A stretch of 64,000 bases of DNA from Bryobacterales bacterium (lineage in GTDB: Bacteria > Acidobacteriota > Terriglobia > Bryobacterales > UBA6623), in contig CBDBKU010000002.1 in assembly GCA_965206775.1 (NCBI GenBank), forward strand, positions 2,182,898-2,246,897, given 5' to 3'. The position numbers and the translations under genes were made by a program. The notes under the pieces were generated by a model. That model was not told where the DNA came from and searched no databases. It saw only the letters and a program-made list of their open reading frames with translations. This document shows, in pieces, positions 21,347 to 55,433 of the stretch; the stretch's first letter is position 1; every line of letters begins with the position of its first letter.

Positions 21347-21362
21347 GGAGAGTTCCGCGCAG

Positions 21363-29321: not shown

Positions 29322-30642
29322 CCAGAGAGCGGGTATTCGATGAACGGCGAACCGGCGCCTTGCGAAAAGCGAGGTCAGGTGCCGTCGCGCACCATCCCGG
29401 CTCCCGCGACCGCAGACGGGCAACTCCCAGGGCTGCCCTGCCGACCGATTCAACAAGGAGTACGAGCGGCGAGTCTCTGCCATTTCACCTCAGGCCTTGT
29501 CCAAACAGCGCCTTCGCGAGCGCCCCGCTTGAAGAGTCGTCGCCCCCTGCGTCCAGGTCCGTGCATACAGGCTGCCGGTTCAGTGCTAAGAGACGGTGCC
29601 GTAGTCCGCCGAGCAGCCCCGCTACCCTCTCCCCTTGGGAATCACCGCCCCGAACTCGCGTCCGGGATGTCCGCTTTCCAGCAGTTTCGGCGGCACCGTT
29701 CGGGCTCCTCTTGTTCGGGGCGGCCCTGCCGCACCGGCCTCTCTTTCCCTTTACCTTGCGAGTGCATGGTTCGGCTGCCGCTTGGCCCTCCGAGATCGAG
29801 CGCATGTAACCGGCACCGACGGCCAGCCATGTCGACCTGCATGCCTCTGCCCTTCCGAAGGGGCGGCTCTCCCACTTTGAGCCCGGGTGTCTCGCGCCAT
29901 TTACTCCCGTGACAGTGCCTGACGGAACCGATCAGCCATGGTTCCGGTGGGAATCGCGTCCCCCCGGCCTCTTCGGTGCATCATGCCGGTCCCCGGTTTC
30001 CGCCCGCACCGGACAACGGCCTCCAACGAATCGCCGGCTCGGATTTGAACGAGCCTGTCTATGCGCTGTGACGATTGCCCGCATGAATGAACAAGCCCGA
30101 CCGGAGAGAATCGAGTCCCGCTGCCGAACTTCCGGGCACGGGCGGACGATGCACGAGCTTGTGCCCCGGGGATCGATATCCGGCGGGAGTGTCTGTCCTG
30201 CAGCTGTGGTTCTGGGGGGGCCTGTGGCGCGCTTCGTAGAGGGCGTGACCGACAGCGTTGGGGTTGAGAAGGGCAGAACGCCAACCCGGTGCGGATCGGG
30301 CGGGGACCGCGCGAGTCGTTCCAGGCCGAGGCCTGGACAGTGAATCCGAGCAGTTTGCCAGGGCATTCGTACTGCCGGGCCCAGCGCTGCGCAAACCGAT
30401 CTGCCCCGTGCTATGATCAAGCACGAGGCACACCACGGTCCGCAGGAGAAGGAGTGCGTCCCTGAAGGGCGCGGCCAGAACTAACAAAAGTGTTTTCGCC
30501 CCCTTGACATGTGCCAGCGGTGCGTGAGAACATTACATCTGATTCCGTCTGCGGGCCCGTTCGGGCCTCGGGTAGGCAAGGCTTGAGTGAGGCGCCGATG
30601 TCTTTCGAAGGCCACAGAAAGAGAGCAAAGGAGAAAATCAGC

Positions 30643-33600
30643 ATGTTTCGCAATAGAGTCAGTTGGGGCATCGGTCTGATGGCGCTGCTGCTGACGCTGG
30701 GCATGGCCGCTTGCGGCGGTGCCGAGCCAGCACCAGTGGTTCAGCCGCCGGCACCGCCGCCGGCACCGCCGCCGTTCCAGCCTCAGGCCGTCGAGGTAGC
30801 CCTCGGCGAGAGCGGGAATATCACATTCATGACCACCGCGGACGGTGGGTTCACTCTCTCGGGCGAGAAGTTCGAGAGTGGCGGCACGGTAGCCGCAGAG
30901 AACGGCAACATGTACGTTCTGAACCTGGCGGACGGCACTTGGGCCGCGGTCTACCAGGCAATGGAAGAGATGGTCACCCTCGGCATCACCGAAGAGGTCG
31001 TGACCCTGACGAAGGCCGAGGACGGCACCTACTGGCTCGGCGACGACCTCGTGACCAGCGGGGAGACGACCGCGACGGCGACGAACGGCAACATGTACAC
31101 GCTGTCGATGAACGAAGAAGGCATGTGGATGGCCGCGTACCAGAAGGTGATGGTCTCCGTCGGTCTCGGCATCACCGGCGAGATGGCGAGCCTGGTACGG
31201 GCCGAGGACGGCACGTACTGGCTCGGGGACGCGCTGGTGACGAGTGGCATGACCACGACAATGTCGATGAACGGCAACGAGTACACGCTGATGATGGACG
31301 CGGACGGCATGTGGACGGCCTTGTACATCGAGCCCGTGCAGGCCGTGATGCTCGGCGAGCATGGCGGGTCCGTGATGATCAAGAAGTCCGAGGACGGCAG
31401 CTACTGGATCGGCGACGTTACTGTCGCGAACGGGTCAACCGTGATGGTGGGCAACAACACGTACGAGCTGATGATGGACGCGGACGGCATGTGGATGGCC
31501 GCGTACCAGCAGGTCATGGTGTCCGTCACGCTCGGCATCACCGGCGAGATGGTGAGCCTGGTGAGGGCCGAGGACGGCACGTACTGGCTCGGCGACGCGC
31601 TGGTGACGAGTGGCATGACCACGACAATGTCGATGAACGGCAACGAGTACCGGCTGATGATGGGCGAGGACGGCATGTGGATGGCCCACTACGTGCCTGC
31701 GATGGGCACGGTCGCGGTCGGAGGCAGCGGGATCGCGGTCTCGGCCATGCGCGACGAGGCTGGCAACTGGTCGGCGGTGCATCCGCAGACGCAGGAGACC
31801 ATCGCACTGACCGAGGGCGGCATGCTCACGGCCGTGAACCTGGCAGGCTATACCAACACCTACACGCTGTCGAGCGACGGAGCCGGCACGTGGACCGCCT
31901 CCTACGTGGCGGTGAGCACGGCGGTCGTGCTCGGCACGAGCGGAAGCAGCGCCATGCTGGTGCGGGCCGAGGACGGCTCGTATGGGCTGGGCGAAGACGC
32001 GGTCCTGAGCGGCGATAGCACTCTGGCTGACAACGGCAACAGGTACATCCTGACGATGGTGAACGGTGCCTGGTCGTCGGCATTCGATCCCGACATGATG
32101 GAGATCAAGGGCGCGGGCATCAACGTCTACACGCGCGAAGACGATGACATGTACGACATCGGCACGGCAGGCAGCGACGTCACGCTAGCCTCGACCGGCG
32201 CGGGGGACATCACCTGGGAAGGCGCGATGTACCGTGTGCGGATGATGGACAGCATGCTTGTGGGCACACGAATCGACACCGCGGTCGTCGAAGACACAGC
32301 GCACATCACGGTTGGATTGAGCGCGCTTCCGACCTACATCGGAGACGACCGCGACACCGAGGAAAATGAGGCGAACACGATGATCGTGGTCGCTGGCGAG
32401 GAAATCTCCCTGGGCGCGCTGTTCGGTCCGACCGGCGCGGCGAAGCCGGCCAAGGAATCCGACGGGCTGGCGGGCGAGTTCGTCCAGGCGGCGGTGGATC
32501 TGCTGATGGATCTGCGCACCGAAGCCGAGCTGTACGCCAAGTACCAGGCGGCGTCGGAAACGCCCACCGAAGAGTTTGACGATCGTCTCGACACCATCGC
32601 GGGTCGGGCACAGGACGCGGTGGACATGATCTTCGGCAACATCGGGCCGGGGAACAAGAAAGTCGACGTGATCGCCGACGACGTTCTTCCCATGGACGGT
32701 GATGAAGAGGGTGACTATGTCCGGGCCACCCAGACCGTCCGCGGGCTCAACACCCTGCTCGACGCTCTGTCGTCGGCGGACGCCTTTGTCGACGCAACCG
32801 AGGAAGGCAACAACGGTGTTTTCGAGGACACGCTCGGTGAGGACGCTGCCAGGGACGCGTTCTCGGCGAACATGAGCGAGTACGCGGTACATTTCCGCTA
32901 CACGGAGAACACGCGCTACGGCGCGATCACGCTGAAGCAGCGGCTCAGCGCCGACCCGGACTTGACAGCCGACACCGACGATGGTGCCGATGCGGAGGCG
33001 GCAGCGATCTATGGCACGCGGTTCGCGTTCGACGGTACCCCGGACGACGATGACAACGAGGACGTCGGAGCGGTCGGGGCCTTCGCGTACTCGCGCATCA
33101 ACGACACGCTACGGTCCCGGAACCTCCCGCAGACCGGGAGCGCGAAATACACGGGCGGCACGCTCGCGGTCACGCCGGGAGGGACGCTGTTCAGCGGCGA
33201 CATGCGCATCGACGTCAATTTCCGCCAGCAGACCGTCTTCGGGCAGGTGTCCAATCTCAGGGACAAGGACAACAGCCTGTGGCAGTACCTCGACGCCGAC
33301 GTTGATACGATCTACCTGCCGAGCCAGACCTACGGCAGCCTGACCCAGTTCGGCGGCGTCTATGACACCGATGACGGTACCGACGGCGTGCAAGCTCCAA
33401 GCGAGGACGTCCAGCGGACAGGCCTCGGAGACTTCGGCACAGCGACGGTCGTCTACGCGGCCGCCCAGGGCTTCGCCTCGCCGACTCAGCAGGACACGAA
33501 GGCGCGCTTCGCCGGCCGGTTCATCGGCCCGGACGGAGCCGAGATCACCGGCACCTGGTCGCTCGGCCAGTCCGTGGAAGGGGACAACAGGGCCACAAAG

Positions 33601-34074
33601 AGCAATGATCTCGACGTGCTCTACGGCTCCTACGGCGTGACGCGCGAGGGCGATGCCATGCAGCCCGTGACCCAGCTGGACCCGACGGTCGGCGGAGCGA
33701 TCAAGGCCGTGGTGATGTCAGACGGCAGCACGATCCAAGGGGACAAGGATCTCGCGGCCATCCTGCGGCTCGGAAAGGCCAGCACGGGCGGCGACAAGAG
33801 CGCCAACAACGACTTCGCCCTCACGACGATCTTCAACGAGGCCGGCGCGGATCCCAAGAAGACGGTCAACAAGTCCATCACGCACGTGCAAACCGTGGTC
33901 GCCCATATCATGCAGCAGCGCGCGATCTACGTGATCTACGCCGAGCAGGTGGGCGGCGATTCCGATGACCGAACCGATCTCGCCAATGCGGGCCGGCAGA
34001 ACGCGTGGATGAGCATCAACGACTTCGTGCTGGATCACATCTTCAATGTGGAACTGGCGGAAATCGACAGCTGA
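30643..34074 (+). CDS. giant surface-lipoprotein paralogue A (open part): lipobox, ~9 x 60-aa Met-rich repeats, acidic helical region, first TbpB-type barrel signature
   Basis: AAGGAG SD 9 nt before ATG 30643. MFRNRVSWGIGLMALLLTLGMAAC lipobox, then a PAPPPAPPP tether. Repeats such as GITGEMVSLVRAEDGTYWLGDALVTSGMTTTMSMNGNEYRLMMGEDGMWMAHY. Barrel wording: GSAKYTGGTLAVTPGGTLFSGDMRIDVNFRQQTVFGQVSNL...ARFAGRFIGPDGAEITGTW. Confidence 0.8.
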   Translation: MFRNRVSWGIGLMALLLTLGMAACGGAEPAPVVQPPAPPPAPPPFQPQAVEVALGESGNITFMTTADGGFTLSGEKFESGGTVAAENGNMYVLNLADGTWAAVYQAMEEMVTLGITEEVVTLTKAEDGTYWLGDDLVTSGETTATATNGNMYTLSMNEEGMWMAAYQKVMVSVGLGITGEMASLVRAEDGTYWLGDALVTSGMTTTMSMNGNEYTLMMDADGMWTALYIEPVQAVMLGEHGGSVMIKKSEDGSYWIGDVTVANGSTVMVGNNTYELMMDADGMWMAAYQQVMVSVTLGITGEMVSLVRAEDGTYWLGDALVTSGMTTTMSMNGNEYRLMMGEDGMWMAHYVPAMGTVAVGGSGIAVSAMRDEAGNWSAVHPQTQETIALTEGGMLTAVNLAGYTNTYTLSSDGAGTWTASYVAVSTAVVLGTSGSSAMLVRAEDGSYGLGEDAVLSGDSTLADNGNRYILTMVNGAWSSAFDPDMMEIKGAGINVYTREDDDMYDIGTAGSDVTLASTGAGDITWEGAMYRVRMMDSMLVGTRIDTAVVEDTAHITVGLSALPTYIGDDRDTEENEANTMIVVAGEEISLGALFGPTGAAKPAKESDGLAGEFVQAAVDLLMDLRTEAELYAKYQAASETPTEEFDDRLDTIAGRAQDAVDMIFGNIGPGNKKVDVIADDVLPMDGDEEGDYVRATQTVRGLNTLLDALSSADAFVDATEEGNNGVFEDTLGEDAARDAFSANMSEYAVHFRYTENTRYGAITLKQRLSADPDLTADTDDGADAEAAAIYGTRFAFDGTPDDDDNEDVGAVGAFAYSRINDTLRSRNLPQTGSAKYTGGTLAVTPGGTLFSGDMRIDVNFRQQTVFGQVSNLRDKDNSLWQYLDADVDTIYLPSQTYGSLTQFGGVYDTDDGTDGVQAPSEDVQRTGLGDFGTATVVYAAAQGFASPTQQDTKARFAGRFIGPDGAEITGTWSLGQSVEGDNRATKSNDLDVLYGSYGVTREGDAMQPVTQLDPTVGGAIKAVVMSDGSTIQGDKDLAAILRLGKASTGGDKSANNDFALTTIFNEAGADPKKTVNKSITHVQTVVAHIMQQRAIYVIYAEQVGGDSDDRTDLANAGRQNAWMSINDFVLDHIFNVELAEIDS
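30787..32280 (+). repeat. in-frame array of ~9 diverged 180-186-bp coding repeats, with near-identical blocks 180 and 366 bp apart
   Basis: For example, ATCACCGGCGAGATGG at 31171 and 31537, and CTGATGATGGACGCGGACGGCATGTGGA at 31288 and 31468. Confidence 0.85.
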
Positions 34075-35107
34075 CGCCGAACCCACGGAGGTCCAGGACC
34101 TGTCCACCCCGCTCGGGGCGCACCTGTACCCGGCGACGCGCAACGGCAACCCGGACGACGACGAGGCGCTCGCGCGGATCGACAACCTGCTGGCGGCGTT
34201 CGAGGACAAGTTCGCCCTCGAGGATGCGGTCAGGATAACGGCGAAGGCGTCTTCGACTCCCGGGCTGCCATGGACAAGGGAGCGACGGACGACCCCTTCC
34301 CCCTGAATGACGTCGTGACACAGGACCCCGAGCCGGTTGGCGACATCTTTGGCAGGCTGGCCTCCCAGACGCAGCTGTGGTCGCTGTCCACGGAGTACAC
34401 TCGGTTCGGAGTTTGGTACCGCCGGGAGACCGCCTCCGCGGTGCACGACTGGGCGAACCACGCCTCGCCCCAAGAAGATGTCGACGGTACCGATACCGAA
34501 ACAGGGGCAGGCTCGCCGGGCAGCTATGCGTACAGCTGGCTTGCCCAGTCGACCTACCGCACGGACAGGGATGTCCCCACGTACCCGGGCAACGGACTGG
34601 CCACCTACGAAGGCAAGACGCTTGCAGTGCTGAGCAATTACCCATATCTACGTGGGCGATGCCCTGATCCGGGTGAACTGGAATCCGCTGACCCGGACCG
34701 CCCAAGACGCAGTGACCACGAATACGACGGTGGTCCCGATCTTCAGCAACTTCCAGAAGTGGCAGGACAGTACCCTCGACCGGCTCATACACGATGGCAG
34801 GATCGTGGATGAGATCACGATTCGAGCCGGCGTAAATGCTGATGATGCGCTGACGCTGGGGGCTGCGGACGGGAAGCTGTTTGTCAATGCCACTGAAGCC
34901 GTGGCCATCGTCACATATACCGACGGGACTTCCATCGAAACACCCATCGCGAGTTCGGTAATCGACGGAAAATTCGTCGGCTCGAGCAACGACGGACCAC
35001 TCGGCATTCTTGGAAACTATACTGTGCCGGAATTCGCCGGGACAACGGACCTGGAAGGATCATTCGGTGCCGACCTGACCAGCTTCGAGACGCTCTTGAC
35101 TCCCTAG
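34075..35107 (+). pseudogene. frameshifted 3' continuation of lipoprotein A (second TbpB-type barrel)
   Basis: Three frame changes (~34070, ~34228, ~34635) are needed to read ...LSTEYTRFGVWYR...GLATYEGKTLAV / HIYVGDALIRVNWNP...IDGKFVGSSNDGPLGILGNY...LEGSFGADL. This is colinear with the C-terminus of paralogue B. Confidence 0.7.
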
Positions 35108-35163
35108 ACGCCCAGACCTCGCGCGGGTCCGCTCCGACCCGCGCACTGGCGTTGAAGACCTAA

Positions 35164-35192
35164 GGGGAAGCGGAAATCCGCTTCCCCTTTTT
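35164..35192 (+). terminator. rho-independent terminator after lipoprotein A
   Basis: GGGGAAGCGG-AAAT-CCGCTTCCCC followed by TTTTT. Confidence 0.8.
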
Positions 35193-35422
35193 CTGTCTTG
35201 CGCGACCATTTGCAGGTCTCGGAGCGGGTTTCCCCTCGGATCCAGGAAGCTGCGGTCTTGACGTTGGGCTTGAGTCCTATCGCCGAGGATGCCGGACGGG
35301 CGAGATCGGGAATCCGAGCGATGACCATGACCGGCTGGACTGGCCGGCTGCGTCTGGAGTTGCAGCGCCTCGTCGCAGGTCACTCTGTGGCAGACCTGTA
35401 CCTCCGGAACGGCCTTCTCCCC

Positions 35423-36093
35423 TCATCGCTCCGCCATCTGGAAGCGCTCCGCGAAGTGAATGGCCAGTCTTCTTTCGAGCCCGCGAAGGGCACGTTGGCC
35501 GGGTCTTCCTCCGACCACGTTGCCGTCGTCGCCGTTACCACCCGGCAGACCAGCTTCTTGGCTGCCGGTCGGAAAGCGGCCCCTCGGCCCCACCCCGCAG
35601 TTCAGCTCTCGATTGCAATCGCCGGGCAAATCGTCCGCCACACCACCCCGAGTGGCGCAGCAACGGAACCACTTCCCTCCCTGACCGCTGGCGCCTTGGG
35701 CAAGTCCCGGACCCTTTCCCGCTCGGCTCGAACGCTTCCAACTCCGGATCCACCTCATCCGGCGCACGGTAGATCTGCTTCAACGCTGGCGCCAGTCCCT
35801 TGCTCCGCTTCTACGAGGCGTGCCGCACCGAATACGCAACCGTGTTCATCTCGTTCAGAAGCAGCGCGACTGCCTCCTTTGCTTGCCGCCCGCCCTTCAT
35901 TGCCACCTCGCAGTTCCGTTCCGGCAGCGCAAGGGCACTGCCTCCGCCGTGAAGCGATTCGCCCCGCGAACACTCCCCCCGCACCCCGCCCGTGGCGGCT
36001 CCCCTGGCAACTGCGACTACGTCGAACGTTGCGCCCCCCGCGCCAGCATCCGCGTTGCCCGCCAAGACCGGATCGGTTCGGTCCAGGACTCAT
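35423..36093 (-). pseudogene. heavily degraded IS256-family (Mutator-type) transposase remnant
   Basis: Scattered in several frames: ALKQIYRAPDEVDPELEAFE, GRFPTGSQEA.., AIHFAERF. These resemble the C-terminal third of IS256 transposases. No intact frame. Confidence 0.4.
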
Positions 36094-36446
36094 GGAAGAT
36101 CGTGTCCGAGGATGTCACGTACCCCGGCGCACCCTCTGCAGATTCCGCTCGAAAGCGAACTCGCGCACGGCAGATTGTCGATTCGCACCAGCCAAGCCGC
36201 AAAGGAAGGCCCGCACCCATCGCTGATTCCTTGTTGGCTTGGAGGGAGGGATGGCCCAGATAGGGCGTTGGAGCACGGGAAGTGGGGCGGTCTGCCGAGT
36301 GAAATCGGGTGTTGTTACGGTGCTGGGGACGCAGGACGGGCCGGGAATCGCCGAGTGGGGCGCTGGCAGCCGCAACGAGGGCGTGGAGGGCCCGTCCGCC
36401 TGGGCCGCGATGGACCGGACTCCGCGGCTGCGGAGCGGAATCCTCG

Positions 36447-38228
36447 CTAGCCGGGAGTCAGCAGCAGTTGCAGCGCCTCGTCACGGTTGCCGGCGTAGTA
36501 CGTTTGCGCCTCCGGCACGGTGTCCTGCGGCCGCTGCGACAGCAGCAGCGCCAGCGCCAGGTTGTTCAGCGCCGCGGCGTTGGACGGACCGTGACCCGTG
36601 CGGATGCGGCTGCTGTCCTCCCCGAAGGAGACGTCGCGGCGATAGTGGTTGGCGCTCTCCACCTGCCAGTGACCCCGCTGCAACGCCAGCAGGTCCTGAG
36701 CCGAGGCGGCCTGCTCCGACAGCGAGGTGATGCCGTAGCTGTAGCTGCTCGACACCGGCCCGCCCAGCCGCTTGCAGGTCTCGTGCGTGATGCGGTACGC
36801 CTGCCGGGCATGCGGGTAGGGCAGCAGTTTCGGATGGGGCGTGAACACAGCGATCGAGCGCCGCTCCCAGCGCTTGTTGCGCGAGCGCTGCCAGCGCCCT
36901 TCCTGCCAACTGCGCTCCGCGCCCCGCTCCCAGTTCAGGCCCGTCAGCGTCTCGTAGGTCAGCGCGCAGTTGCCCTTGATGCGCACCAGCACCTCCCCGC
37001 CGTGCTGCTCGATGATCGCCCGCTGGATCTCCTGCCCCGCATGCCCCGCGTCCATCGTCACCGTCCGGCCGCGCAGATCCACCTCTTCCAGCAACGCCCG
37101 CAGCGCGCCTTGCTCGCCGCCTTCCTCGCGGTAGCTGCGGCTCGCCACCGGCAGGCCCTTGACATGGCCCACCAGCGTCACCGTCTCCCAGTGCTGCCCC
37201 TCCGCCGCCATCCGATTCGCCCCCCGAATGCGCTTCCCGTCCGCCGCCAGCGCCTGCGGCTGCGGCACCAGCGGCTGCGTCCAGCGCTGGATCACGCGCT
37301 CCAGCGAGGCCGGATCCGTCCGCTCCATGACTCGCTGGAACGTCGTGTCCGAAGGCGTCACGCACCGCCGCTCGCGCTCGTCCCAGCGGCACCCCAGCGC
37401 CCGTAACTCGTGCTCCTTCAGTGTCTTCGAGTACGCTTCCGCCGCCCTCCCGCCGCGCTTGCCCGCCAGCCTCGCCAACACCATCAGCGCCAGCACCACC
37501 CCCAGCGCATGCCGCTTCCCGCGGCGCCCCCGGCTGTCCTCCACATCCTCCAACTGCTTCCGCAACGACCGCAAATCCTCCGCCCCGTAGCGCACATCCA
37601 CCGGCCCGCAATCCCACTCCTCCCGCTCCTGCGGATCCGCCAGCCGCTCCCGCGCTCCCGCCCGCAACTCATACACCAGCATCATCTTCTTCTGCCCGTG
37701 CTTGTCGGTGTACTTCCCGTTCGACCGCGCGTAGCCCTTGCTCAGCCCCAGCTTGATCCAGTTCGACGCCAGATACGCCGTGCCCCGGTACTTGCGCGGA
37801 TCCACGAACGTCTCCGCGAGTTCGAGCGGATGCCCCCAACTCGCCTCCCAGTCCCCGCTCAGCCGCCGCAGGTTCAACCCCAGCACCCGCGAGGCCAGGT
37901 TCTTCACGCCCTGCCCCGCGGGCAGCACCAGGAACCGCGTGTTATTCCCGCACAGGTGCAAGCGCCGGAACTGCACCGCCTTGTGCCAGCCCAGCCAGCG
38001 GTCGCGCGGCCGGCACTGGAACACCCCCGTCTGCCAGCCCAGCAGCGCCAGCCACTCGCCCCGCCACTCCGCCACGTAGCGCAGCCCGCGCCCCGCGAAC
38101 TGCTTGAATCCCAGATAGTGCTGCGCGTCCATCAACCCGTCCCAGCGCAGCCGCTCCTCCGGCCGGGTCGGCCGGACCACCACCTCGCTCAGCACCGGAA
38201 CCTCCGCAGCACACACTGGCATCGTCAT
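36447..38228 (-). CDS. DUF4338 (DruA-like) domain fused to an ISAs1-family DDE transposase
   Basis: N-terminus: LRWDGLMDAQHYLGFKQFAGRGLRYVAEWRGEWLALLGWQ...NNTRFLVLP...ETFVDPRKYRGTAYLASNW. C-terminus: LAADGKRIRGA...VTMDAGHAGQEI...LQRGHWQVESANHYRRDVSFGEDSSRIRTG. Confidence 0.75.
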   Translation of the reverse strand: MTMPVCAAEVPVLSEVVVRPTRPEERLRWDGLMDAQHYLGFKQFAGRGLRYVAEWRGEWLALLGWQTGVFQCRPRDRWLGWHKAVQFRRLHLCGNNTRFLVLPAGQGVKNLASRVLGLNLRRLSGDWEASWGHPLELAETFVDPRKYRGTAYLASNWIKLGLSKGYARSNGKYTDKHGQKKMMLVYELRAGARERLADPQEREEWDCGPVDVRYGAEDLRSLRKQLEDVEDSRGRRGKRHALGVVLALMVLARLAGKRGGRAAEAYSKTLKEHELRALGCRWDERERRCVTPSDTTFQRVMERTDPASLERVIQRWTQPLVPQPQALAADGKRIRGANRMAAEGQHWETVTLVGHVKGLPVASRSYREEGGEQGALRALLEEVDLRGRTVTMDAGHAGQEIQRAIIEQHGGEVLVRIKGNCALTYETLTGLNWERGAERSWQEGRWQRSRNKRWERRSIAVFTPHPKLLPYPHARQAYRITHETCKRLGGPVSSSYSYGITSLSEQAASAQDLLALQRGHWQVESANHYRRDVSFGEDSSRIRTGHGPSNAAALNNLALALLLSQRPQDTVPEAQTYYAGNRDEALQLLLTPG

Positions 38229-38359
38229 GCCCCATCAATACACGATCCCGGCCAAAAAAGCCAGTCCCTCGTCTAACTCTTTGCGACCAAGGTTACTACC
38301 CTCGAACAAGAATCAGCCGTGGCCCGCACCCATCACAACCACGACTAATGACTTTGTTT

Positions 38360-40188: not shown

Positions 40189-40315
40189 CCTTTGTTTTGG
40201 TAAAATCAAACAACTCAGCTAATGTTCCACCAGACACGAGGGATTTCGCGCTATTTGCTTCCCTCCAGCTGTGAGACCATGCTAGACTGCGAATTCAAGA
40301 AGAAGGTACTAGGCA

Positions 40316-44608: not shown

Positions 44609-44639
44609 TCGCGCGTTGCAGCCGCAACGACCGGCACTC

Positions 44640-44677
44640 GCGGGCGGGCTCGGGAAACGAGCTCGCCCGCTTTGTTT
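44640..44677 (+). terminator. rho-independent terminator after lipoprotein B
   Basis: GCGGGCGGGCTCG-GGAAA-CGAGCTCGCCCGC (one mismatch) followed by TTTGTTT. Confidence 0.7.
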
Positions 44678-44819
44678 CGCCACGATGCACGCATGGCAGT
44701 GCACTCCTTTGTTGCTCGGGCTCTCGTGTCGCGCTTCCGCACGGAAAGCCTGGATCGAGGCCAACTGCAATGGAATCGCAATCGGGCATCAACAGGGACT
44801 GAGTTCCACTACGGCTAGT

Positions 44820-45130
44820 CGCCGATTGCCGGTCGGCATCCAGACATTCCGCGAAATCCAAGGGACAAACCCCTACTACGTGGATCGGATCGGCATCGCT
44901 CGGCGGCCAGCGAGGAAGCCAAGCACCAACTCCCGTCACGGCCGCGGCGGTTCGGCAAGAGCCTCTTCGCGGGATACGCTGACGCAGCAGCTAGAGGGGA
45001 ACTTGGAACTGTTCACGGGGCTGGAGGCACATCGGCTCTGGGACCGTCAGTAGCCGCCCGGCCGTACGGGTCGACTCCAGCGGTGTCAACGCGAACGTGG
45101 ATGGGCTCCTGGACACAGACAGCGGCGGGT
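44820..45130 (+). pseudogene. fragment of an AAA-ATPase-like / PD-(D/E)xK (DUF1703-type) protein, frameshifted
   Basis: RRLPVGIQTFREIQGTNPYYVDRIGI... then (other frame) SRPRRFGKSLFA.., LEGNLELFTGLE. This is the typical N-terminal wording of that family. No intact frame. Confidence 0.4.
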
Positions 45131-45619
45131 AAATGGATGCCGTTCATCGTTCGACAGGGCGGAGCGGCGTCATACGGCGGCCCGTGGGCGGATCCGAAAT
45201 CTGATCCACAGCCTGCGCCAGCAGACCGGTTGACGGGCCGAGTGAGCTGACGGACTGGCCGCATCAGGATCGCAGACGTTCCAAACGATCCGAACTGGAA
45301 CCCATGGCGCAGTCTCGTCTGATTCGCTGAAGCTCGTGTGCAGACGGGCCGCCAACCCGGAGCGGAACTGGGGAATTCGTTCCCATGCCCTCGTCGAGCC
45401 CCGCTCCCACTGCGGCAAGCTACATACCATTACGCCGCTTCGAATTCTTCGCGTGTGGTTCTAGCCGACGATCTCCCCTGGGCCGAAAGGGCAGTCGCCT
45501 GGCCACTGTCGCCGGAACCGCTTCGGGCCAACCCCCCTTCGGAGTTCTCGGCCGGGTCTCGGCACCCGGAGGACTAGCCTCGATTCCCAACGGTCATCAA
45601 AGATGTGACCGGCCGGCCG

Positions 45620-47358
45620 TCAGAAGAAGCGCAGGTGGAGGGTGCGGTTGTCGAGCCAGGGAATAGGTTCCCGGATATCGGCATAGCCGGCGGCTAGCAG
45701 CAGCGGGTTGTTGGCCCGCCGCCCGAGGCTGACGGTAATCTCGCTGGCGCTGATCTCGATGCTGGCACTGGCATGCACCAGCTTGTGGAAGAGGGTGCTG
45801 GCCTTGGCGACCTCGAAGCCGTTGCCGAGGCGCTGGCCGAGCAGGCGGTACAGCGAGCTGGCCATCACGGTGAGCTGGACGTCGAGATCGACCTTCATCG
45901 GCACGGCGGCCGACAACGCGTCCATGTGGAAGAAGTCGATGGCGTCGGCGATGGTGTTCTCGATCACCATGCGGCGCGCATAGCGGTCGATCAGGCGGGC
46001 CGCCGGCTCGTCCATCTGGTTGGTCAGCAGCAGGGTCGGCTTCTCGTGGCCGAGATCGGTGATGGCGATCTGGCGGATGGCGGCCGGGTAGCCCTTGAGG
46101 CGGATGGTGCGCTCGAGGATGCGCGGCGTGCGGTAGATGCGGCCGACGTTGGCGAGGGTGACCTTGCGCCAGTCCGCGGCTGGCGCGGCGAGCAGTTCGG
46201 CGACCATCTTGTGCGAGCGCCTGCGCAGGGTCAGGAAGGCGATGCCGAGCTGGTTGAGGCGGGCGAGGTTGGCATAGGTCGTCAGGCGGGAGTCGAAGAC
46301 GAGTTCAGCGGGCAGCTGGCCGGTGCGTTCGCGCCAGGCTTCGGCGAAGCGCAGGATCTCGTCGTTCTGGCTGTGCTTGCGGAGCTGGGCGTTGGCCCAG
46401 GCGCGAACACGCGCGCGTCGGCGTCGCGGGCGAGGAAGGCGAGCACGCCCTTCTGGCGGCGGCTGCGCTTGGACACGTAATGGCGTTCCAGCAAGGCGTC
46501 GTCGCCGTGGTAGGGGATGGTGTGGAAGTCGAGGTCGAAGGAGCGTCCGGAGCCGAGGCCGGGGCCGAGGCCATGGGCGGCGTGGTGGAAGGCGTCCATC
46601 AGCGGGGGGCAGAGGCGGGGGTCGACGCGGCCGCTGTACTCGGTGAGGGTGGCGCGCTTGGGGACGGCGTTGAGGCCGGCGAAGAGGGCGAGGCCCTGGT
46701 CGAGGGTTTCAGGCATGACCCGGGCCGGCCGGCCGATACCCCAAAGCTTGAGCGCGAGCAGGGAGCGGAAAGCGCAGCCGGGAGGGATCATCGCGCTGCC
46801 CGGCAGGCCGTGACGCTCGAGCAAGCGGTCGAGGCCGAGACGGGCGAGATCGGGGGCGAACAGGAACAGGCCGCCGAAGTCGGTGCGGAAGCGGCGGGGG
46901 GAGAGGTCGAGAGCGCGGCGGTCGGCGACGGGGGCCGGCTGGGGCTGGGCGCCCTGGGCGCGCTGTGCGTGGGTGCGGCGCCAGAGCTTGGGCAGGCCGG
47001 CGCGCTTGAGGACCCGGGCGACGGTGGTGGCACTGACGGGCAGGGCCTGCTCGGCGGTGAGGTGGGCGGCGATTTCGGCAGCAGAGAGATGGCGCTGCTG
47101 GCGCAGGGCGAGGATGAGCTGGTCGCGGTCGGGGCCGGGCCGGGGCTGGCTGTGGCCGCGACGGTCGGGGAGGAAGAAGAGCCGGTCGGGCTGCTGGAGG
47201 AAGGCGGTACGGAGATTGCGCAGGGTGCCGGGGGCGTAGCCGAAGAGGCGGGCGGCCTCGTCGAGGGGGGCGTTGTCGACGAAGAGCGCCCGGAGGGCCT
47301 CGTAGCGGCGGTGGGTGCTGTTGTGGGGGACGAGGAAGCGTTGGGCGAGGTCGTGCAT
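45620..47358 (-). pseudogene. second copy of the unclassified DDE transposase (see 18173..19939), at least two frameshifts
   Basis: ORF 46282..47358 (MHDLAQRFLVPHNSTHRRYEALRALFVD...DLDFHTIPYHGDDALLERHYVSKRSRRQKGVLAFLARDADARVF) and ORF 45620..46207 (..IRQIAITDLGHEKPTLLLTNQ...RYARRMVIENTIADAIDFFHMDALS) are colinear with the intact copy. Confidence 0.8.
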
Positions 47359-47758
47359 CTATTAGTGCCTGTTAGCCTTTGATACCCACTATACTTCAAT
47401 TGCAATTTCGAGTCAACTGCCGAATGGGTTGCAGGAGCCTGGGCAGCGGAGCCGGCTGGATGGATGGACAGGTCGGGCAGGTAGGGAACGACTTGGGAGA
47501 ACTGCGGGCGAGGGTTTCGGCGAGATTGGCCAGGAGAAGCCGCATAACTGTATATGGTTATTAATGAGTGACTTATATTGAATAGATGCACGGCTTGGGC
47601 CCGTGTGGACGGGAATCGCTGGCAAGGCCCGCGGGAACTCCCGGCCTGCCGTGGGCGAGGCGCTGACGCCACCGATCCAGAAGGCCGCCTGTTCCGGGCG
47701 GTGTGTCCTATAATTTCATGGACACACATTGGAAATCAAATGAAAACAATCACAAATA

Positions 47759-49608
47759 GTAACTGCCCAGGTACTCTTCAGATACAGGAGCCCCAATCGA
47801 TTGGATGAATAGAGGGGCTCACTTGGAGTGCGGTCCGCTCAGCATGCGTGCATCCGAACCGGGTGGAGTGTGGCGGCTAGGCTCCCACCCTCGCCAGCAG
47901 AGCGGCCGGCCCTTGCAACAAGGCCTCGATGCGGTTCAGGCCCTGCTTGCGCGCCGTCGACAGCACACTACGCAGCGTGGCGAAGTCCTGCGCACCCTGC
48001 TCGGAGCGGAACCCGCCCGAGATCTTCATCCGCAGCTTCATCATCCGCAAATCCTGTTCGGCCTGGTTGTTCGTGAACGGCACCCTCTCGTCCCTGAGAA
48101 ATCGCAACACCGACTCCCGCCTGTCCCTCAGCCGCAACGCCAGATTATGTCCCGGCCGACGCTTCTTGCGGCCCCGCCGTCCCGGCTTGGCCGGCCGCAA
48201 CGGCTCCAACCCCTCGTGATACGCCAACGCCTCCCGCACCAACTTGTCGTAACGCCGCTCGATCCTCTCCAGTAGCGATCGCGGCAGCGCCACCCCCCGC
48301 TCCCGCACGATGTCCACCGCCTGCTTCGCCCGCCGCAGCAACTGCTGCATCCGCCGCGCCCAGTCTTCCCCGTCGATCTTCGCCAACGCCTCCAGTTCCC
48401 GTAAATGGTGAATGTTACACAGCGCGTGCAGCACTCCCGGCACCTTGAAATACGAGGCCCAGTGGTCATGCACCAGGATGCCTCGCAACCCCTCCAGCAC
48501 GCCACCCCGCTGGCGGCTCGTCCGGTAGTGGGTCAGCTGCGCCGTGCTCAGCACGTGCAACCACTGCCCCTGGCCCGCAATCCGGAATCCCGTCTCGTCC
48601 AGATGCTTCACTCCGCTGGCGCTTACCAGCAGCTCCCGGACCCGCTCGGTCCAACTCCGCCAGACCTGCGCTGCCTTGCGGCTCATCCCCGCCAGCGTCG
48701 CCGCGCACAAGGCCACCCCGAACAGGTCCCGGAAGATCTCCGCCAGTCGATCCTCGGGCAGGAAATGGGCGTTCTGCAAGTACACCGCCGTGGCCGCGAT
48801 CCGCGGCCCGTACTGCACCGGCGCGGTCACGCCCTCCGGGAACGCGGCCCGCGTCAGCTGTCCGCACTGCTGGCAACGACAGCCCCAGGCCTGGTGCTCG
48901 GTCACCTCCGGCGGTGTCGGTGCGGGCAGATCATAGACCTGCCGACGCTGGGGCTCGCCCTCCACGTCGGCCGCCGACAGGGCCGCTCCGCACTCGCGGC
49001 AACCGGACGGCAGGTGGACCTGGGTCCGGTCCGGTGTGTCGGTCTGGCTCAGCGTCGCGCCCTTGTGACCGGGCTGCCCACCCGAGCGCTTGCCGGACCG
49101 CCGACGCTGGCTGCGCGTCCGTTTCGCTGCCGCTGGCTTGGCCGGCCCATCGCTCGACGGTGGTTTCCCGCTGTTGCTGCTGTCGAGGCCCAATCGCCGT
49201 TGCAATGCCTGCACTTGCTCTCGCAACGACTGCAACTGCCTCGTCAACTCCTCATGGAGGGCCTGCAACCGGGCGTTTTCGGCCTCCAACTGAGTGTTCT
49301 TGGCCTCCAACTGCGCATTCTTGGCCTCCAATTGCGCATTCTTGGCCTCCAATTGCGCCTGACGCGGCTCGCTGTTCGCTCGCTCCATCTTCATCCCGCT
49401 GACGCCGGTACTGCTCGTCGCGAGCGCATCGGCTTGCTCACAACGGTCCGGATGCCCACAACATTACTATTGCTAACTGGTTTCCCAGCGGAAAGTCAAG
49501 TGCTGCGGAATTCTGGCCATCCCGGTGAGCGGTTCCCGTGGAACCATCCGGCCTCCCCCCTTTTCAGTACGCATCACCCGAGTACGAGTGGGGGTACCTG
49601 GGCAGTTA
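47759..49608 (-). mobile_element. IS66-family insertion sequence, copy 2
   Basis: IRs GTAACTGCCCAGGTAC / GTACCTGGGCAGTTAC. Perfect 8-bp direct repeat CACAAATA at 47751..47758 and 49609..49616. Confidence 0.9.
47877..49394 (-). CDS. IS66-family transposase (near-identical to copy 1 apart from an expanded heptad array)
   Basis: QAQLEAKNAQLEAKNAQLEAKNTQLEAENARLQ..., then colinear with 8180..9676. Confidence 0.9.
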   Translation of the reverse strand: MKMERANSEPRQAQLEAKNAQLEAKNAQLEAKNTQLEAENARLQALHEELTRQLQSLREQVQALQRRLGLDSSNSGKPPSSDGPAKPAAAKRTRSQRRRSGKRSGGQPGHKGATLSQTDTPDRTQVHLPSGCRECGAALSAADVEGEPQRRQVYDLPAPTPPEVTEHQAWGCRCQQCGQLTRAAFPEGVTAPVQYGPRIAATAVYLQNAHFLPEDRLAEIFRDLFGVALCAATLAGMSRKAAQVWRSWTERVRELLVSASGVKHLDETGFRIAGQGQWLHVLSTAQLTHYRTSRQRGGVLEGLRGILVHDHWASYFKVPGVLHALCNIHHLRELEALAKIDGEDWARRMQQLLRRAKQAVDIVRERGVALPRSLLERIERRYDKLVREALAYHEGLEPLRPAKPGRRGRKKRRPGHNLALRLRDRRESVLRFLRDERVPFTNNQAEQDLRMMKLRMKISGGFRSEQGAQDFATLRSVLSTARKQGLNRIEALLQGPAALLARVGA

Positions 49609-50012
49609 CCACAAATACGTGATTCCAATCACGGAAACACCCTGGAACGAATAGACTTTGAGCCCAGGAGGTCCCCGATCTCTCACATCAGGAACTTAGT
49701 TGGGTATCGAGGCTAGCAGACTTGGAAGTCGGTCCTCCGCGTCCGGACCGTTCTGCACGTAGCAGTACAGCTCCTCGCGGAACACCCGGTTCTGGTGGGA
49801 TGGGTGGCTGGCGCTGTCGTGGGACCCCTGGGACTCGGTCACGCTCGTGCAAAGCGACACCCTGTTGGCGGGAATGTAAGACTGCACACTCGTGGGCATC
49901 GGAAATGGCGCACCTGAGGGCCGGCGCGGACCGCGAGTTCTGAGCCGGATTGGGAGCGGGGAAGTGGGAGGATCAGGGCATCCTAGCGACATCACTCAAC
50001 AAGGGGGGCGCA

Positions 50013-50717
50013 ATGTTCGACAGCGACAAGAGGGTGCTGGTGCGGCACTATCTGGAGCAGGGGGTGGCCCAGGCGGAAATCGCACGCGGGCTGAGTGTCG
50101 GGAGGCGCATCGTGTACAACTGGATCGCAGCAGACGGGAAGTTGGGAAAGGGGGCCTGCGAGGGCGAGTACGGGCCGAGACCGTCGCGAGCTTCGAACCT
50201 CGACTGCTTCAAGGGGATCATTGCAGCCCGCTTGGTGGCCTATCCGCAACTGAGCGCGGTACGGCTGTTTGATGAGGTCAAGGCGGCTGGCTACACGGGG
50301 GGATACGACCAAGTCAAGCGGCCTGTGAGGGAGGTGCGGCCGCGGGAAGCGGAGGAGCCGGTGGTGAGGTTGAAAACAGCGCCAGCGCATCAGGCCCAAG
50401 TGGACTTTGCCGTATTCCGGTTGCCGTGGGGCAAGCGCCAGGCGCTGATGGCGGTGCTGGGCTACTCGCGCCGGATGTGGCTGAGGTTCTACCGGCGCCA
50501 GACGAGGATGGTGGTGATCCGCGGGCCCGAGGAGTCGTTCTCGTATTTGGGCGGCGTGCCCGTGGAACTGTTCTTCGAGCAGATGAAGGCGGTGGTGATC
50601 TCGGACCGGCGCGCTTGGGACGGGGGCCTGATTGAGAACCCGGAGTTCCGAGCGTTCAGCGACTACTGGGGCTTCATGTCAATGGGCATCGAAAATGGCA
50701 CACCCATCCGTGCGTGA
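50013..50717 (+). pseudogene. istA: IS21-family IstA transposase, 5' half only
   Basis: MFDSDKRVLVRHYLEQGVAQAEIARGLSVGRRIVYNWI (HTH)...QAQVDFAVFRLPWGKRQALMAVLGYSRRMWLRFY...FSDYWGF, then sense is lost (~50680). Confidence 0.7.
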
Positions 50718-51074
50718 CGCACTTGACGAGGCCCCCAATCTCCGCGATCACCATCTCCCGGTTGATCGCTCCGTTGCCTTGGCGACTTAGCGCGTCCTCC
50801 CACTGTCGAAATCAAGTCCAAGCGTCCTCTTCGTAAGCCTTAAGGGCGTGGTTTGGTCCGTCCGGCTGTCCGGCGAGTGCTTCAACTGACGCTACCCGGC
50901 GCATGCCCGCATGAATTCGCGACCGAGAGAAGCCGATCGCGAAATCGCAGGCTTCCTGGCAGCTCGTTGCCAGGCCGGATCCCCGAGAATTGCGGCCTCT
51001 GGTGATTAGCTCGCCCGCTATTCTGTGGTGTGGACCCAAGGGCACTCCATCTCGCTTGGGAGGTACAGAAGGGG

Positions 51075-52646
51075 TCAAAACACACGGACGAAACCGCCTT
51101 CGACGCGGTAGCGCTGGTAAGAGTAGAGCGATAGGTTCGCTATCCTATCTTCGCGGATGAAAGACACTGATGGCGAGAACCCGCCGAACTGGATCAGGCG
51201 GTTGTGGACCTGAAGCCGAGAGAACCAAAGGCGAGTATTCGGCGGGTCAGGTCCGAACAAGGGCAGAGGCTGTTCGAATTTCGTCAGGAAGAGCTGTTGT
51301 GCCGCGGCCATCGTGAAACCTAGCGGCAAGTCGTAGGTGCCCATGACGCCGACCCACCTCGATCGGTGTCTGGTCGATAAACGGTCGGTCTTCTCACGTC
51401 CGCTTCCGCCCATGAACCTCAGGTTCAGGGACGGCAGGAGCGTGTAGTTGACGAAGGCCTGGCTGTTCCAGCTCAGGCCCGCTTCGCCGATCGGCCCTTC
51501 GGTCGAGAGCGCTGTCTGGCGGGATAGCTCCACGCTGCCGCCTGCCCAAATGCGAGGCATCACCAAGCGGAGAGCCTCGACCTGCAGCCCGTACTGCCGG
51601 CTGTAGGGCCGGCCGTTGACGCCGCGCCGGTCCGCCTTGAACAGCACGCTGAAATGCCCTCGGTTGCTGAGAAAGCGAGGACCGGCGTAGACGCCATAGT
51701 TGTGATCGTCGAACTCTCCCCCCGAGTATTCCCGGCGATAGACGAGTCCTCCGACACGAAGGCGAGTGGCCACGCCTGGAATCCATTTGAGGTGGGGCAG
51801 CGGTTTCTGGATCTCGGCGGTTAGAGTTCCGACGACTCCGATACCGCTCTTTGCGCGCGCTTGGTCGTCCAGTTGGAACGGCAGGCCAAAGATATCGACT
51901 GTTTGCGCCGACGTCGAGGTGTTGACGTTCGTATCGGGGGCGAGGGCTAAGCTCAGACTCCCTGACGCACGTTTCCGAGCGCGGCATATCTGGATGAAGC
52001 GTCGGACGTTCATCATCACCTGGGGGGGGACTTTCGCACCCAGTACACGCAAGAAATGCTGCTCAGCGGCCCAACAGTCGTCACCCAGCATGTGCTTAAT
52101 GAGATTCGTCGGTGGTGCCTGGCAGTGTCCCCGGGAAAACAGGCCGCGGGCCAGCTCGAGCCGTACTCGCAAATTGTCCGATTCTTTGACGAGAATTCCC
52201 CTGAATGAACGAACTGCCAGGTCGAAATGCTCCTTTGCAGAAGGCTCTGCCGGCTTGGATCCCGCGCGCACCGCGGCATCTCCGACGGCGAGTGCTGCCA
52301 GTCCCATAGAGAATGTGGCTTGGGTGGAGTCCGGACGGGCTTCCGCTACGGGTTTGATGACCGATAGAGCTTCCTCACCACGTCCCAGGTTCAGCAGACG
52401 GTCGGCTGCGACCACCGCCGCCATGACCTGATCGTCGGTCGGCGCATTTGAATCGGTGTCGGCAGCCCGGACGGGCGCCGGTAGCGTTAGCACTCCGGTC
52501 AGCACGAGGGTCAGGAGGTGACTCGTCCGCGACAGGAGAACCGACAACGCCTGGGATAGCGTGCCGCCCGACTTCGGCTGACAGTTGGCCACCTCAGCGG
52601 CTCGAAGTGCCGCCGGAGGTATCACTTGTGCGTGTAACATGGGCAA
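51075..52646 (-). CDS. Slam-like (DUF560) outer-membrane surface-lipoprotein translocon
   Basis: Signal-like LLTLVLTGVLTLPAPVRA|ADTD. Helical/TPR-like N-terminal third. C-terminal two-thirds shows alternating beta pattern (LSLALAPDTNVNTSTSAQTVDIFGLPFQLDDQARAKSGIGV...) ending in an aromatic residue (...YRVEGGFVRVF*). Family call from memory of DUF560. Confidence 0.6.
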   Translation of the reverse strand: MPMLHAQVIPPAALRAAEVANCQPKSGGTLSQALSVLLSRTSHLLTLVLTGVLTLPAPVRAADTDSNAPTDDQVMAAVVAADRLLNLGRGEEALSVIKPVAEARPDSTQATFSMGLAALAVGDAAVRAGSKPAEPSAKEHFDLAVRSFRGILVKESDNLRVRLELARGLFSRGHCQAPPTNLIKHMLGDDCWAAEQHFLRVLGAKVPPQVMMNVRRFIQICRARKRASGSLSLALAPDTNVNTSTSAQTVDIFGLPFQLDDQARAKSGIGVVGTLTAEIQKPLPHLKWIPGVATRLRVGGLVYRREYSGGEFDDHNYGVYAGPRFLSNRGHFSVLFKADRRGVNGRPYSRQYGLQVEALRLVMPRIWAGGSVELSRQTALSTEGPIGEAGLSWNSQAFVNYTLLPSLNLRFMGGSGREKTDRLSTRHRSRWVGVMGTYDLPLGFTMAAAQQLFLTKFEQPLPLFGPDPPNTRLWFSRLQVHNRLIQFGGFSPSVSFIREDRIANLSLYSYQRYRVEGGFVRVF

Positions 52647-55244: not shown

Positions 55245-55433
55245 ATCCCGCAGTATTCCGGCGGCAGATTTTCAGATTGTTCCGGCGGCAGGAGGGGGAG
55301 TTTTTCCGGATTGTTTGTGATGTGTGACAGGTAGGAAGGGTCCTGTCGACAGGGGGTTTGACGGCAGAGTCGGGGCGTTTGCGGGGAGGCCGGAACGGTG
55401 GCGATGGTGCGTTTGGTCCGGGCTGGATGGGTG

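Follow-up and report, generated by a model that had tools for sequence, protein, structure and literature searches.

Known Slam systems and the present locus

Work on Slam proteins and type 11 secretion (T11SS) has centred almost entirely on proteobacterial pathogens and on symbionts of nematodes, and the Slam/T11SS surveys searched Proteobacteria only (PMC5449769, PMC8406197, PMC12282271). The closest described systems are Slam1-TbpB and Slam2-HpuA of Neisseria and Moraxella (T11SS cluster 1). Their Slams combine a TPR domain at the N-terminus with a DUF560 barrel, and the cargo is a lipoprotein with a C-terminal TbpB-type barrel, encoded beside the Slam. The locus described here, found in a 64-kb stretch of DNA that was analysed as a whole (the window), is predicted to be alike in these respects, but it belongs to Acidobacteriota and not to Proteobacteria. 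The cargo of Slam1 and Slam2 has at most ~80 kDa, whereas lipoprotein B of the window has ~150 kDa, about twice any cargo shown to pass a Slam, and carries a putative stalk of nine repeats from the lipid anchor to the lobes.

TbpB and LbpB are bilobed, as predicted for lipoprotein B. The lobe handles of TbpB are beta-sheet, whereas those of lipoprotein B are predicted to be acidic helical bundles, and the sequence similarity of the lipoproteins to TbpB_B_D is under threshold. TbpB also has a TbpA-like TonB-dependent receptor as partner, of which this window has none. On both counts, beta-sheet handles and a TonB-dependent receptor in the window, the lipoproteins fall outside the TbpB/TbpA system proper. 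LbpB, a surface lipoprotein with two TbpB-fold lobes and strongly acidic insertions, resembles lipoprotein B by analogy only. Its acidic regions are C-lobe loops, whereas lipoprotein B would have an acidic helical bundle in each lobe, and there is no lactoferrin context.

Among predicted T11SS cargo, multi-TbpBBD and repeat-bearing proteins (Sphingomonas, Psychrobacter, Pls-like; PMC12282271) also have more than one TbpB-type barrel, or N-terminal repeats before a C-terminal barrel, and one Pls-like protein, of 525 aa, has been shown to depend on T11SS (PMC12282271). The repeats in this cargo are short Pro-Thr or PTD linkers, or alpha-helical EEARKA, whereas lipoprotein B has nine folded-domain-sized units of 60 aa and its family is found in Acidobacteriota MAGs. 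A repeat stalk occurs in none of the ten cargo architectures published in PMC12282271, in line with the original prediction that known Slam substrates have no such repeat array. NilB/NilC and HrpB/HrpC of Xenorhabdus share the DUF560 outer-membrane protein, which in this animal symbiont exports host-interaction or metal-binding cargo. NilC and HrpC differ in being small (two domains), stalkless and proteobacterial.

Judged from sequences and models, the locus would be an architectural and phylogenetic departure within the known Slam system, with Slam dependence and surface exposure predicted. We consider it probable that the locus serves Slam (type 11 secretion) display of surface lipoproteins in Bryobacterales-like Acidobacteriota, with giant stalked lipoproteins as cargo. 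The features are collected in Table 1.

Table 1 Features of the Slam and lipoprotein locus, in window coordinates.
Feature	Position	Strand	Description
Lipoprotein A gene, diverged paralogue	30643..35107	+	Lipobox GMAAC, poly-Pro, 7-8 repeats, two lobes; frame broken
IS block, lipoprotein A to B	35108..40315		DruA-like + DDE_Tnp_1 and IS66 transposases
DruA-like + DDE_Tnp_1 transposase	36447..38228	-	In the block 35108..40315
IS66 transposase	38505..40079	+	In the block 35108..40315
Lipoprotein B gene, intact	40316..44608	+	1430 aa; mature 150 kDa, pI 4.1
Type II signal peptide and poly-Pro tether	40316..40459	+	Lipobox LLAGC, Cys26; tether residues 27-48
Nine tandem ~60-aa beta-type repeats	40460..42088	+	Residues 49-591; HMM scan and TRF
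Lobe 1, acidic helical bundle and TbpB-type barrel (predicted)	42356..43354	+	Residues 681-813 and 814-1013
Lobe 2, mixed helical region and C-terminal TbpB-type barrel (predicted)	43355..44605	+	Residues 1014-1232 and 1233-1430
IS block, lipoprotein B to Slam	44609..51074		DDE_Tnp_1 fragment, Tc3-HTH transposase, IS66 copy, rve fragment
Slam/T11SS outer-membrane protein gene	51075..52646	-	523-aa ORF from TTG; Pfam SlipAM; P0151 carries PF04575
Slam DUF560/SlipAM beta-barrel domain, putative	51078..51944	-	Residues 235-523, last residue Phe
Slam TPR-like helical domain, N-terminal, putative periplasmic	51957..52445	-	~Residues 68-230; weak TPR_Slam, TPR_16, TPR_19 matches

The Slam protein

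By its sequence, the product of the minus-strand gene at 51075..52646 has a DUF560/SlipAM domain preceded by a putative TPR domain. The layout described earlier was all present: 523 aa, the APDTNVN motif, a ...GGFVRVF end, and helical/TPR-like and beta-rich halves. Its proposed DUF560/Slam identity was borne out by a Pfam profile check, in which SlipAM (DUF560, PF04575) matched above threshold (26.3 bits, GA 22), with residues 235-515 aligned to profile positions 9-280 of 288. All aligned Slam relatives (31/31) matched SlipAM as well, with a best E of 3.4e-25, and 27 of the 31 matched TPR_Slam (PF24575); the window Slam itself reached 18 bits with the latter, under the GA of 35.2.

The profile of the Slam-family N-terminal region matched TPR structures with an E of 1e-20. 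A PDB sequence search with the Slam gave TPR proteins only, and no Slam structure at the sequence level. The single-sequence AF2 model was poor overall (pLDDT 39.5), with helices at residues 70-227 (pLDDT 70-90), and a crude alignment-based scan of residues 220-521 indicated ~15 beta segments of amphipathic character. Two alternative starts were noted. The ATG at 52640 gives a protein of 521 aa, 100% identical to the database protein P0151, and translation from the in-frame TTG at 52547 would begin with a canonical signal peptide (...LPAPVRA/ADTD).

The search yielded 183 Slam relatives, most of them with precomputed PF04575. One carries the NCBI name 'surface lipoprotein assembly modifier [Bryobacterales bacterium]'. 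Orthologues at 74-77% identity were present on Bryobacterales/Terriglobia MAG contigs, and one of these is adjoined by an ADOP-family permease (555 bits).

Lipoprotein B

The lipobox, poly-Pro stretch, 60-aa repeats, acidic helical region and two TRFG...GSFGA series that had been reported for lipoprotein B were all found. In both lipoproteins the lipobox was called by pattern inspection (LLAGC in B, GMAAC in A). The poly-Pro stretch of B has 22 residues, 55% of them Pro. Its repeats have a 180-bp tandem period with 92% matches (TRF), and copies 4 and 5 are almost identical; the 60-aa unit gave marginal matches only (ARC6-like_IMS, Ca_tandemer, LysM_OapA). Asp and Glu make up 27% of the acidic helical segment at residues 681-813. 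The two TRFG...GSFGA series lie at residues 826/1007 and 1244/1422, and the protein ends in GSFGADLQP. One relative, P0001, also has 1430 aa and is 79% identical. An exact-sequence look-up found no encoding contig for lipoprotein B or for P0213, a second Slam-like protein.

In the AF2 model, residues 621-1430 form two lobes (pLDDT 84.8, pTM 0.71), with the regions ahead of both barrels predicted to be helical. When this model was compared with the PDB by Foldseek, ranks 1-31 were all known Slam/T11SS cargo (TbpB, NHBA, fHbp, HpuA, HphA), at probabilities of 0.99-1.00 and E values from 6e-10 (the best, TbpB) to 3e-3. The TM score on the target was up to 0.68 for single barrels. According to the model, the C-terminal part of lipoprotein B consists of two acidic helix-plus-TbpB-type-barrel lobes, and the TbpB-type barrels of the original prediction are supported.

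A Pfam match to TbpB_B_D, which the prediction also implied, was not obtained at threshold (GA 26), with 13.6 bits in B and 21.0 bits in A. In A, the match spans residues 872-1042 when the 1187-aa ORF is translated from 30511, which are residues 828-998 counted from the ATG at 30643. Lipoprotein B was also below threshold for FHBP_C (15.5 bits, GA 28.1) and slam_lipo (32.7 bits, cut-off 80). The weak slam_lipo, FHBP_C and TbpB_B_D matches at its residues 823-930 are mutually consistent. With the lipoprotein as query, phmmer and profile searches of PDB sequences produced no meaningful match. Its relation to TbpB shows in the fold only.

The lipoprotein family is small, with 150 representatives among 1.84 billion. 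No Pfam domain reaches threshold in it, and its annotation is "hypothetical"; weak TbpB-type sequence matches were seen in just 5 of 35 members. Most full-length members keep a lipobox near residue 26 and the poly-Pro stretch, and the C-terminal motif G[AS][FY]GA[DE]L.P is conserved across the family. A homologue search with the last 220 residues of lipoprotein B gave only 9 close matches, and a metagenome scan with a narrower lipoprotein alignment found one locus only. The related MAGs may be sponge-derived, to judge from bin-name conventions and an ankyrin-repeat neighbour; a literature search gave no confirmation.

Lipoprotein A

Lipoprotein A had been described as a paralogue of lipoprotein B with the same 9-10 repeats. 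The paralogy stood, whereas the single reading frame did not, and the repeat number applies to B (nine) but not to A, for which an HMM scan gave seven clear repeats and one weak. Over the repeats, genes A and B are only ~36% identical. Counted against an intact 988-aa homologue from locus L012, gene A has three frameshifts, with breaks near 34072, 34240 and 34637. The ORF stops at 34074, and the reading continues in frame 2 (34075-~34240), frame 1 (~34240-34637) and frame 2 again (to 35107). P0087 was considered as an intact gene A orthologue and rejected, being only 37% identical; the 988-aa protein was the better comparator.

The source contig stems from a long-read-style metagenome assembly, and the lesions are single small indels, all inside 570 bp, with the translated frames staying 54-55% identical to the intact homologue throughout. 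They might be assembly or sequencing errors, in which case gene A would be a second intact cargo gene of ~1480 aa. However, they lie outside long homopolymers, neighbouring genes of similar length are intact, and clear truncations are seen in other fragments of the family, both in this window and in related loci. We regard such errors as somewhat unlikely.

Linkage of Slam and lipoprotein genes

Giant-lipoprotein genes are convergent with or flank the Slam orthologue both in the window and on three contigs of related Acidobacteriota MAGs (L002, L003, L004). No such gene lies within 10 kb of the Slam in L001, L005, L007, L008, L009 and L011, that is in six of the 10 distinct clade loci, and therefore the linkage is loose. 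In another genome, three lipoprotein paralogues lie ~73 kb from the Slam on one contig. The earlier suggestion of a former adjacency agrees with the three related contigs, where the Slam orthologue is flanked by lipoprotein genes and which make it plausible, by gene order, that Slam and lipoprotein B were once a convergent adjacent pair. The six other Slam loci do not bear it out. Part of the linkage may reflect shared residence in IS-rich islands.

The lipoproteins could also be TbpB-like in fold but independent of this Slam, either facing the periplasm or reaching the surface by another route. The Slam would then have a different cargo, and the proximity would stem from accessory genes accumulating in IS-rich islands. 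Several Slam contexts fit such independence. The orthologues in L001 and L005 have a GSDH-PadR-ADOP-ceramidase context, and those in L008-L011 directly follow conjugation genes with no giant-lipoprotein gene within 10 kb, the ones in L008-L010 preceding a TonB-receptor-like OMP. Two lipoprotein loci (L012, L013) have no Slam within reach, and an identical Slam protein on another contig has different neighbours. On the other hand, no other TbpB-barrel protein was seen beside these Slams, and linkage occurs in 4 of 10 loci, compared with a few percent expected by chance. The C-terminal barrel and motif, the known Slam recognition element, are moreover the most conserved part of the lipoprotein family. 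Independence of the two is, in our judgement, improbable.

The window was correctly said to hold no TonB-dependent receptor partner. None was seen among the ORFs scanned in the window, and tblastn with an acidobacterial TBDR-like protein found none in it. Beside the window Slam, tblastn detected no TBDR, ArdC-like or ceramidase remnant.

Proposed export and display

The Slam-dependent display that we favour draws on domain identities, predicted folds, family conservation and recurrent gene linkage. We infer Slam dependence, surface exposure, stalk function and the ligand of lipoprotein B, within a mechanistic frame of unfolded cargo, a C-terminal specificity motif and a lateral-gate lipid flip (PMC9090332). 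Lipoprotein B would be exported by Sec, lipidated at Cys26 and travel unfolded to the outer membrane. There the Slam would recognise the C-terminal TbpB-type barrel and terminal motif (...GSFGADLQP), and lipoprotein B would be threaded through the Slam barrel while its lipid anchor is flipped to the outer leaflet. On the cell surface, the poly-Pro tether and the nine 60-residue beta repeats may form a stalk. It would keep the two TbpB-like lobes, as a strongly acidic binding head, at a good distance from the membrane. This head could be an adhesin or a capture protein without a dedicated TonB-dependent receptor nearby.

More tentatively, and just short of calling it probable, we propose an undescribed non-proteobacterial class of T11SS/Slam cargo, namely ~150-kDa stalked lipoproteins of (probably sponge-associated) Acidobacteriota. 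In this class the helix-handled and highly acidic TbpB-fold head would stand tens of nanometres clear of the cell on a modular stalk of 60-aa repeats, where it would adhere to the host matrix or capture cationic ligands. Were this true, a Slam barrel could thread cargo of no less than double the size known today, and the TbpB barrel would serve as a portable export tag well beyond pathogens.

A working system in Acidobacteriota would widen the known host range of the Slam route and raise the known limit on cargo size about twofold. Such a system would also add a cargo architecture, a repeat stalk with helix-handled TbpB lobes, and provide concrete candidates for surface adhesins or capture proteins of uncultured symbionts. 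The lipoprotein family, so far hypothetical proteins, gains a name and a testable function.

IS context of the locus

IS insertions broke up this locus, and one of its two lipoprotein genes is frameshifted. Across both gaps the transposases are of the IS66, IS4/DDE_Tnp_1, Tc3-HTH and rve types. The 6.5-kb gap between lipoprotein B and the Slam had been described as IS debris; its IS content was confirmed, but 'debris' does not fit all of it, as some elements look like whole IS copies (IS66 at 47752..49616). That the system is decaying and non-functional here, a graveyard of IS-disrupted genes with lipoprotein B and Slam no longer co-expressed, would suit the three frameshifts of gene A, the IS21 that truncates a third repeat-bearing gene and the dominance of transposases and recombinases throughout the window, but we hold it to be very improbable, as the ORFs of gene B (4.3 kb) and the Slam gene (1.6 kb) are intact, their GC3 is of the coding type and both have intact orthologues, that of B with 79% identity and those of the Slam with up to 88%. 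For P0213, the second Slam-like protein, the longest contig on record equals in length the genome contig of the window. The IS66 copy at 47752..49616 and the stretch 8055..9897 share 95% identity.

The candidate Slam translocon

The gene at 51075..52646(-) translates into 523 aa with the C-terminal end ...GGFVRVF. Its product had been assigned to DUF560, now SlipAM (PF04575), and this identity was borne out by hmmscan, which scored 26.3 bits (gathering score 22) and matched residues 235-515 to nearly the whole profile (positions 9-280 of 288). The N-terminal third gave weak TPR_Slam and generic TPR matches. A database search returned 183 Slam relatives. Most members of the acidobacterial clade (at least 56% identity) had a precomputed PF04575 match, and one acidobacterial relative is already called "surface lipoprotein assembly modifier" by NCBI. 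Remoter relatives, 29-39% identical over 74-95% of the query (mostly at least 83%), combined PF24575 with PF04575. When 31 of the database relatives were aligned, all of them matched SlipAM (best E 3.4e-25) and 27 matched TPR_Slam; the alignment profile retrieved TPR structures from the PDB at E 1e-20. The evidence that supports the predicted beta barrel consists of the Pfam match, ~15 beta segments from a crude amphipathicity scan, and a Phe as the C-terminal residue.

The start annotated for the Slam gene probably lies too far upstream. Initiation at an in-frame TTG at 52547(-), 33 codons into the ORF, would give a protein with a canonical Sec signal peptide, predicted as MSVLLSRTSHLLTLVLTGVLTLPAPVRA/ADTD. 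In the database version, the first codon is ATG 52640. Another Slam-like database protein, P0213, has 449 aa; 71% of the query aligns with it at 74% identity. The longest contig listed for it is as long (2,847,374 bp) as that listed for P0151, the Slam protein of the window, which suggests a second Slam paralogue in the same genome.

The lipoprotein genes

Three long ORFs had been proposed for the system. Two of them stood, the Slam gene and gene B (40316..44608(+), a single unbroken frame of 1430 aa); the third, gene A, stops early, at 34074. The mature lipoprotein B has 150 kDa and a pI of 4.1. Its repeats have an underlying tandem period of 180 bp, with copies 4 and 5 nearly identical, and its C-terminal part consists of two units, in each of which a beta-rich domain comes after an acidic helical region (Table).

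Gene A starts at ATG 30643, inside the ORF 30511..34074. tblastn, first with gene B and then with a 988-aa homologue that is intact in another genome, traced the rest of its product through frame 2 (34075-~34240), frame 1 (~34240-34637) and frame 2 again, which ends at stop codon 35107. Judged from its sequence, gene A is a pseudogene or else carries assembly errors, because three small indels, none of them in a long homopolymer, break the frame.

The 60-aa repeat was also found in a trypsin-like serine protease gene of the window, and is thus a shuffled module that is not specific to the lipoproteins. The protease gene has a frameshift between its repeat copies and is truncated by an IstB gene of IS21 (21582..22031).

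Table. Features of the lipoprotein genes, the 60-aa repeat and the mobile elements, in the window unless another locus is named
Feature	Location	Strand	Evidence or remark
Lipobox LLAGC (Cys26) and 22-residue tether, 55% proline	gene B	+	sequence
Nine 60-aa repeat copies	gene B, residues 49-591	+	
TRFG/GSFGA brackets of the beta domains	gene B, residues 826/1007 and 1244/1422	+	sequence
Trypsin-like serine protease C-terminal end (...EPGSSGAPVF...), then PPPPDP linker and two 60-aa repeat copies	20702..21332	+	frames 2 then 3
1148-aa NHL/TEN_NHL-repeat protein with 60-aa repeat copies	L011, 18046..21492	+	tblastn E 5e-10
Three to four giant-lipoprotein paralogues or fragments, clustered within 24 kb	L012, 4676..7642, 10001..14212, 14405..14986, 19836..23696		among IS and integrase; ~73 kb from that genome's Slam
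Two IS66-family copies, DUF6444 N-terminus	8055..9897, 47752..49616		95% identical
Two more diverged IS66 copies	13542..15191, 38505..40079		
Large serine recombinase, 729 aa	25250..27439		
Transposase: DruA-like (Druantia) N-terminal domain, DDE_Tnp_1_assoc, DDE_Tnp_1	36447..38228	-	
Inverted ~2.4-kb copies	55239..57627, 60831..63322		91-93% identical
Three consecutive tyrosine-recombinase genes between the ~2.4-kb copies	57616..58611, 58604..59785, 59551..60924	-	
DUF3991/Toprim gene	55434..56186		

Lipoprotein family and predicted fold

At the sequence level, the barrels of gene B scored under every curated threshold (slam_lipo 32.7 vs 80, TbpB_B_D 13.6 vs 26, FHBP_C 15.5 vs 28.1), as did gene A against TbpB_B_D (21.0 bits, threshold 26), and a sequence search of the lipoprotein against the PDB found no match. 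An exhaustive HMMER search with gene B residues 621-1430 against 1.84 billion cluster representatives yielded 150 family proteins at E <= 0.001, 53 of them at E <= 1e-30, and many were 1000-1600 aa long. Most full-length members have a lipobox near residue 26, a poly-Pro tether and LG.SG-type repeats, and most end in the motif G[AS][FY]GA[DE]L.P; a few carry an ordinary signal peptide in place of the lipobox.

An alignment of 34 family members was used as input for an AlphaFold2 model of residues 621-1430, which showed two lobes of helices and beta strands (pLDDT 84.8, pTM 0.71). The TbpB-type barrel fold expected in the original prediction was decisively recovered when this model was compared with the PDB by Foldseek, as ranks 1-31 were all Slam/T11SS cargo. 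Intact TbpB from four genera aligned over both lobes at E 6e-10 to 9e-8. The NHBA C-domain (TM on target 0.68), fHbp (0.63-0.64), the TbpB C-lobe, HpuA and the hemophilin HphA also matched, and the earliest unrelated protein appeared at rank 32, with a probability of 0.14. TbpB has beta-sheet handles, whereas the model of lipoprotein B has helical regions ahead of each barrel.

Gene linkage in related loci

Slam orthologues at 74-77% identity were found on contigs of Bryobacterales/Terriglobia MAGs. A duplicated permease of the ADOP family (TIGR03434, 555 bits), which is characteristic of Acidobacteria, adjoins one of them. Bin-name conventions and an ankyrin-repeat neighbour suggest that the related MAGs may be sponge symbionts; no confirmation of a sponge origin was found in the literature.

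Among the acidobacterial loci compared with the window, L002 has a 1309-aa gene B homologue (44% identity) that is convergent with Slam; 2.6 kb and a single IS separate the two. A 1329-aa homologue is placed divergently upstream of Slam in L003, which also has a barrel fragment 1.2 kb downstream. Both loci fit the view that gene B and Slam were once adjacent, as proposed earlier, and convergent. L004 has giant-lipoprotein fragments on both sides of Slam. No giant-lipoprotein gene was found within 10 kb of Slam in L001, L005, L007 or L008-L011; the L005 genome carries three lipoprotein paralogues within 24 kb, ~73 kb from Slam. The linkage, seen in four of ten distinct loci, is well above chance yet loose, and the excess is possibly inflated by a shared stay in IS-rich islands.

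The gene order in L001 and L005 is GSDH-PadR-ADOP-ceramidase-Slam. In L008-L011, which come from larger acidobacterial genomes, Slam (10001..~11570) directly follows VirB8, TraG/VirD4, a VirB11-like ATPase and ArdC-N with MPTase-PolyVal, and in L008-L010 it is directly followed by a TonB-receptor-like OMP of 884-899 aa. These adjoining conjugation-type genes hint that an integrative conjugative element carries Slam along at its margin. A Slam 100% identical to that of the window was found at 4457..6022 of L007, a 27-kb low-coverage contig from another ENA assembly. Its neighbours there (IS91, ISL3 and three integrases) are unlike those in the window, indicating that the surroundings of Slam are rearranging quickly.

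Comparison with published systems and proposed mechanism

Slam/T11SS systems are described as proteobacterial in surveys that covered Proteobacteria only (PMC5449769, PMC8406197, PMC12282271), and a term search of PMC8406197 and PMC12282271 found no mention of the non-proteobacterial phyla looked for. Ten cargo architectures were catalogued in 2025 (PMC12282271), among them multi-TbpBBD proteins that carry Pro-Thr linkers, and Pls-like proteins whose repeats are helical. Neither a stalk built from 60-aa domains nor a helical handle occurs in any of the ten. The names borne by lipoprotein relatives are only "hypothetical protein [Bryobacterales bacterium]", and the cluster records bear none. 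Therefore, the Slam half was already annotated automatically. The cargo family and the pairing had not been described before.

In the Slam pathway, the cargo is exported by Sec, lipidated at the lipobox cysteine and transits unfolded to the outer membrane; its C-terminal specificity motif is recognised, it passes through the Slam barrel and folds outside, and the lipid is flipped via a lateral gate (PMC9090332). Here, the conserved terminal barrel, which ends in GSFGADL.P, would serve as the export tag; a stalk would be made of the tether and the nine repeats, and the acidic bilobed head would act as the binding module. The parts list and the folds are the firm part of this model. We lean modestly towards the model as a whole, in which lipoprotein B would be a Slam-dependent, surface-exposed, stalked ligand-binding protein.

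Mobile elements

Nearly the whole 64-kb window is made up of mobile-element genes. The two gaps between genes A and B and between gene B and Slam are filled by IS66, IS4-type, Tc3-HTH and rve transposase genes, some of which are part of near-identical IS copies. The DruA-matching domain recurs in IS-rich stretches of L007 and L012.
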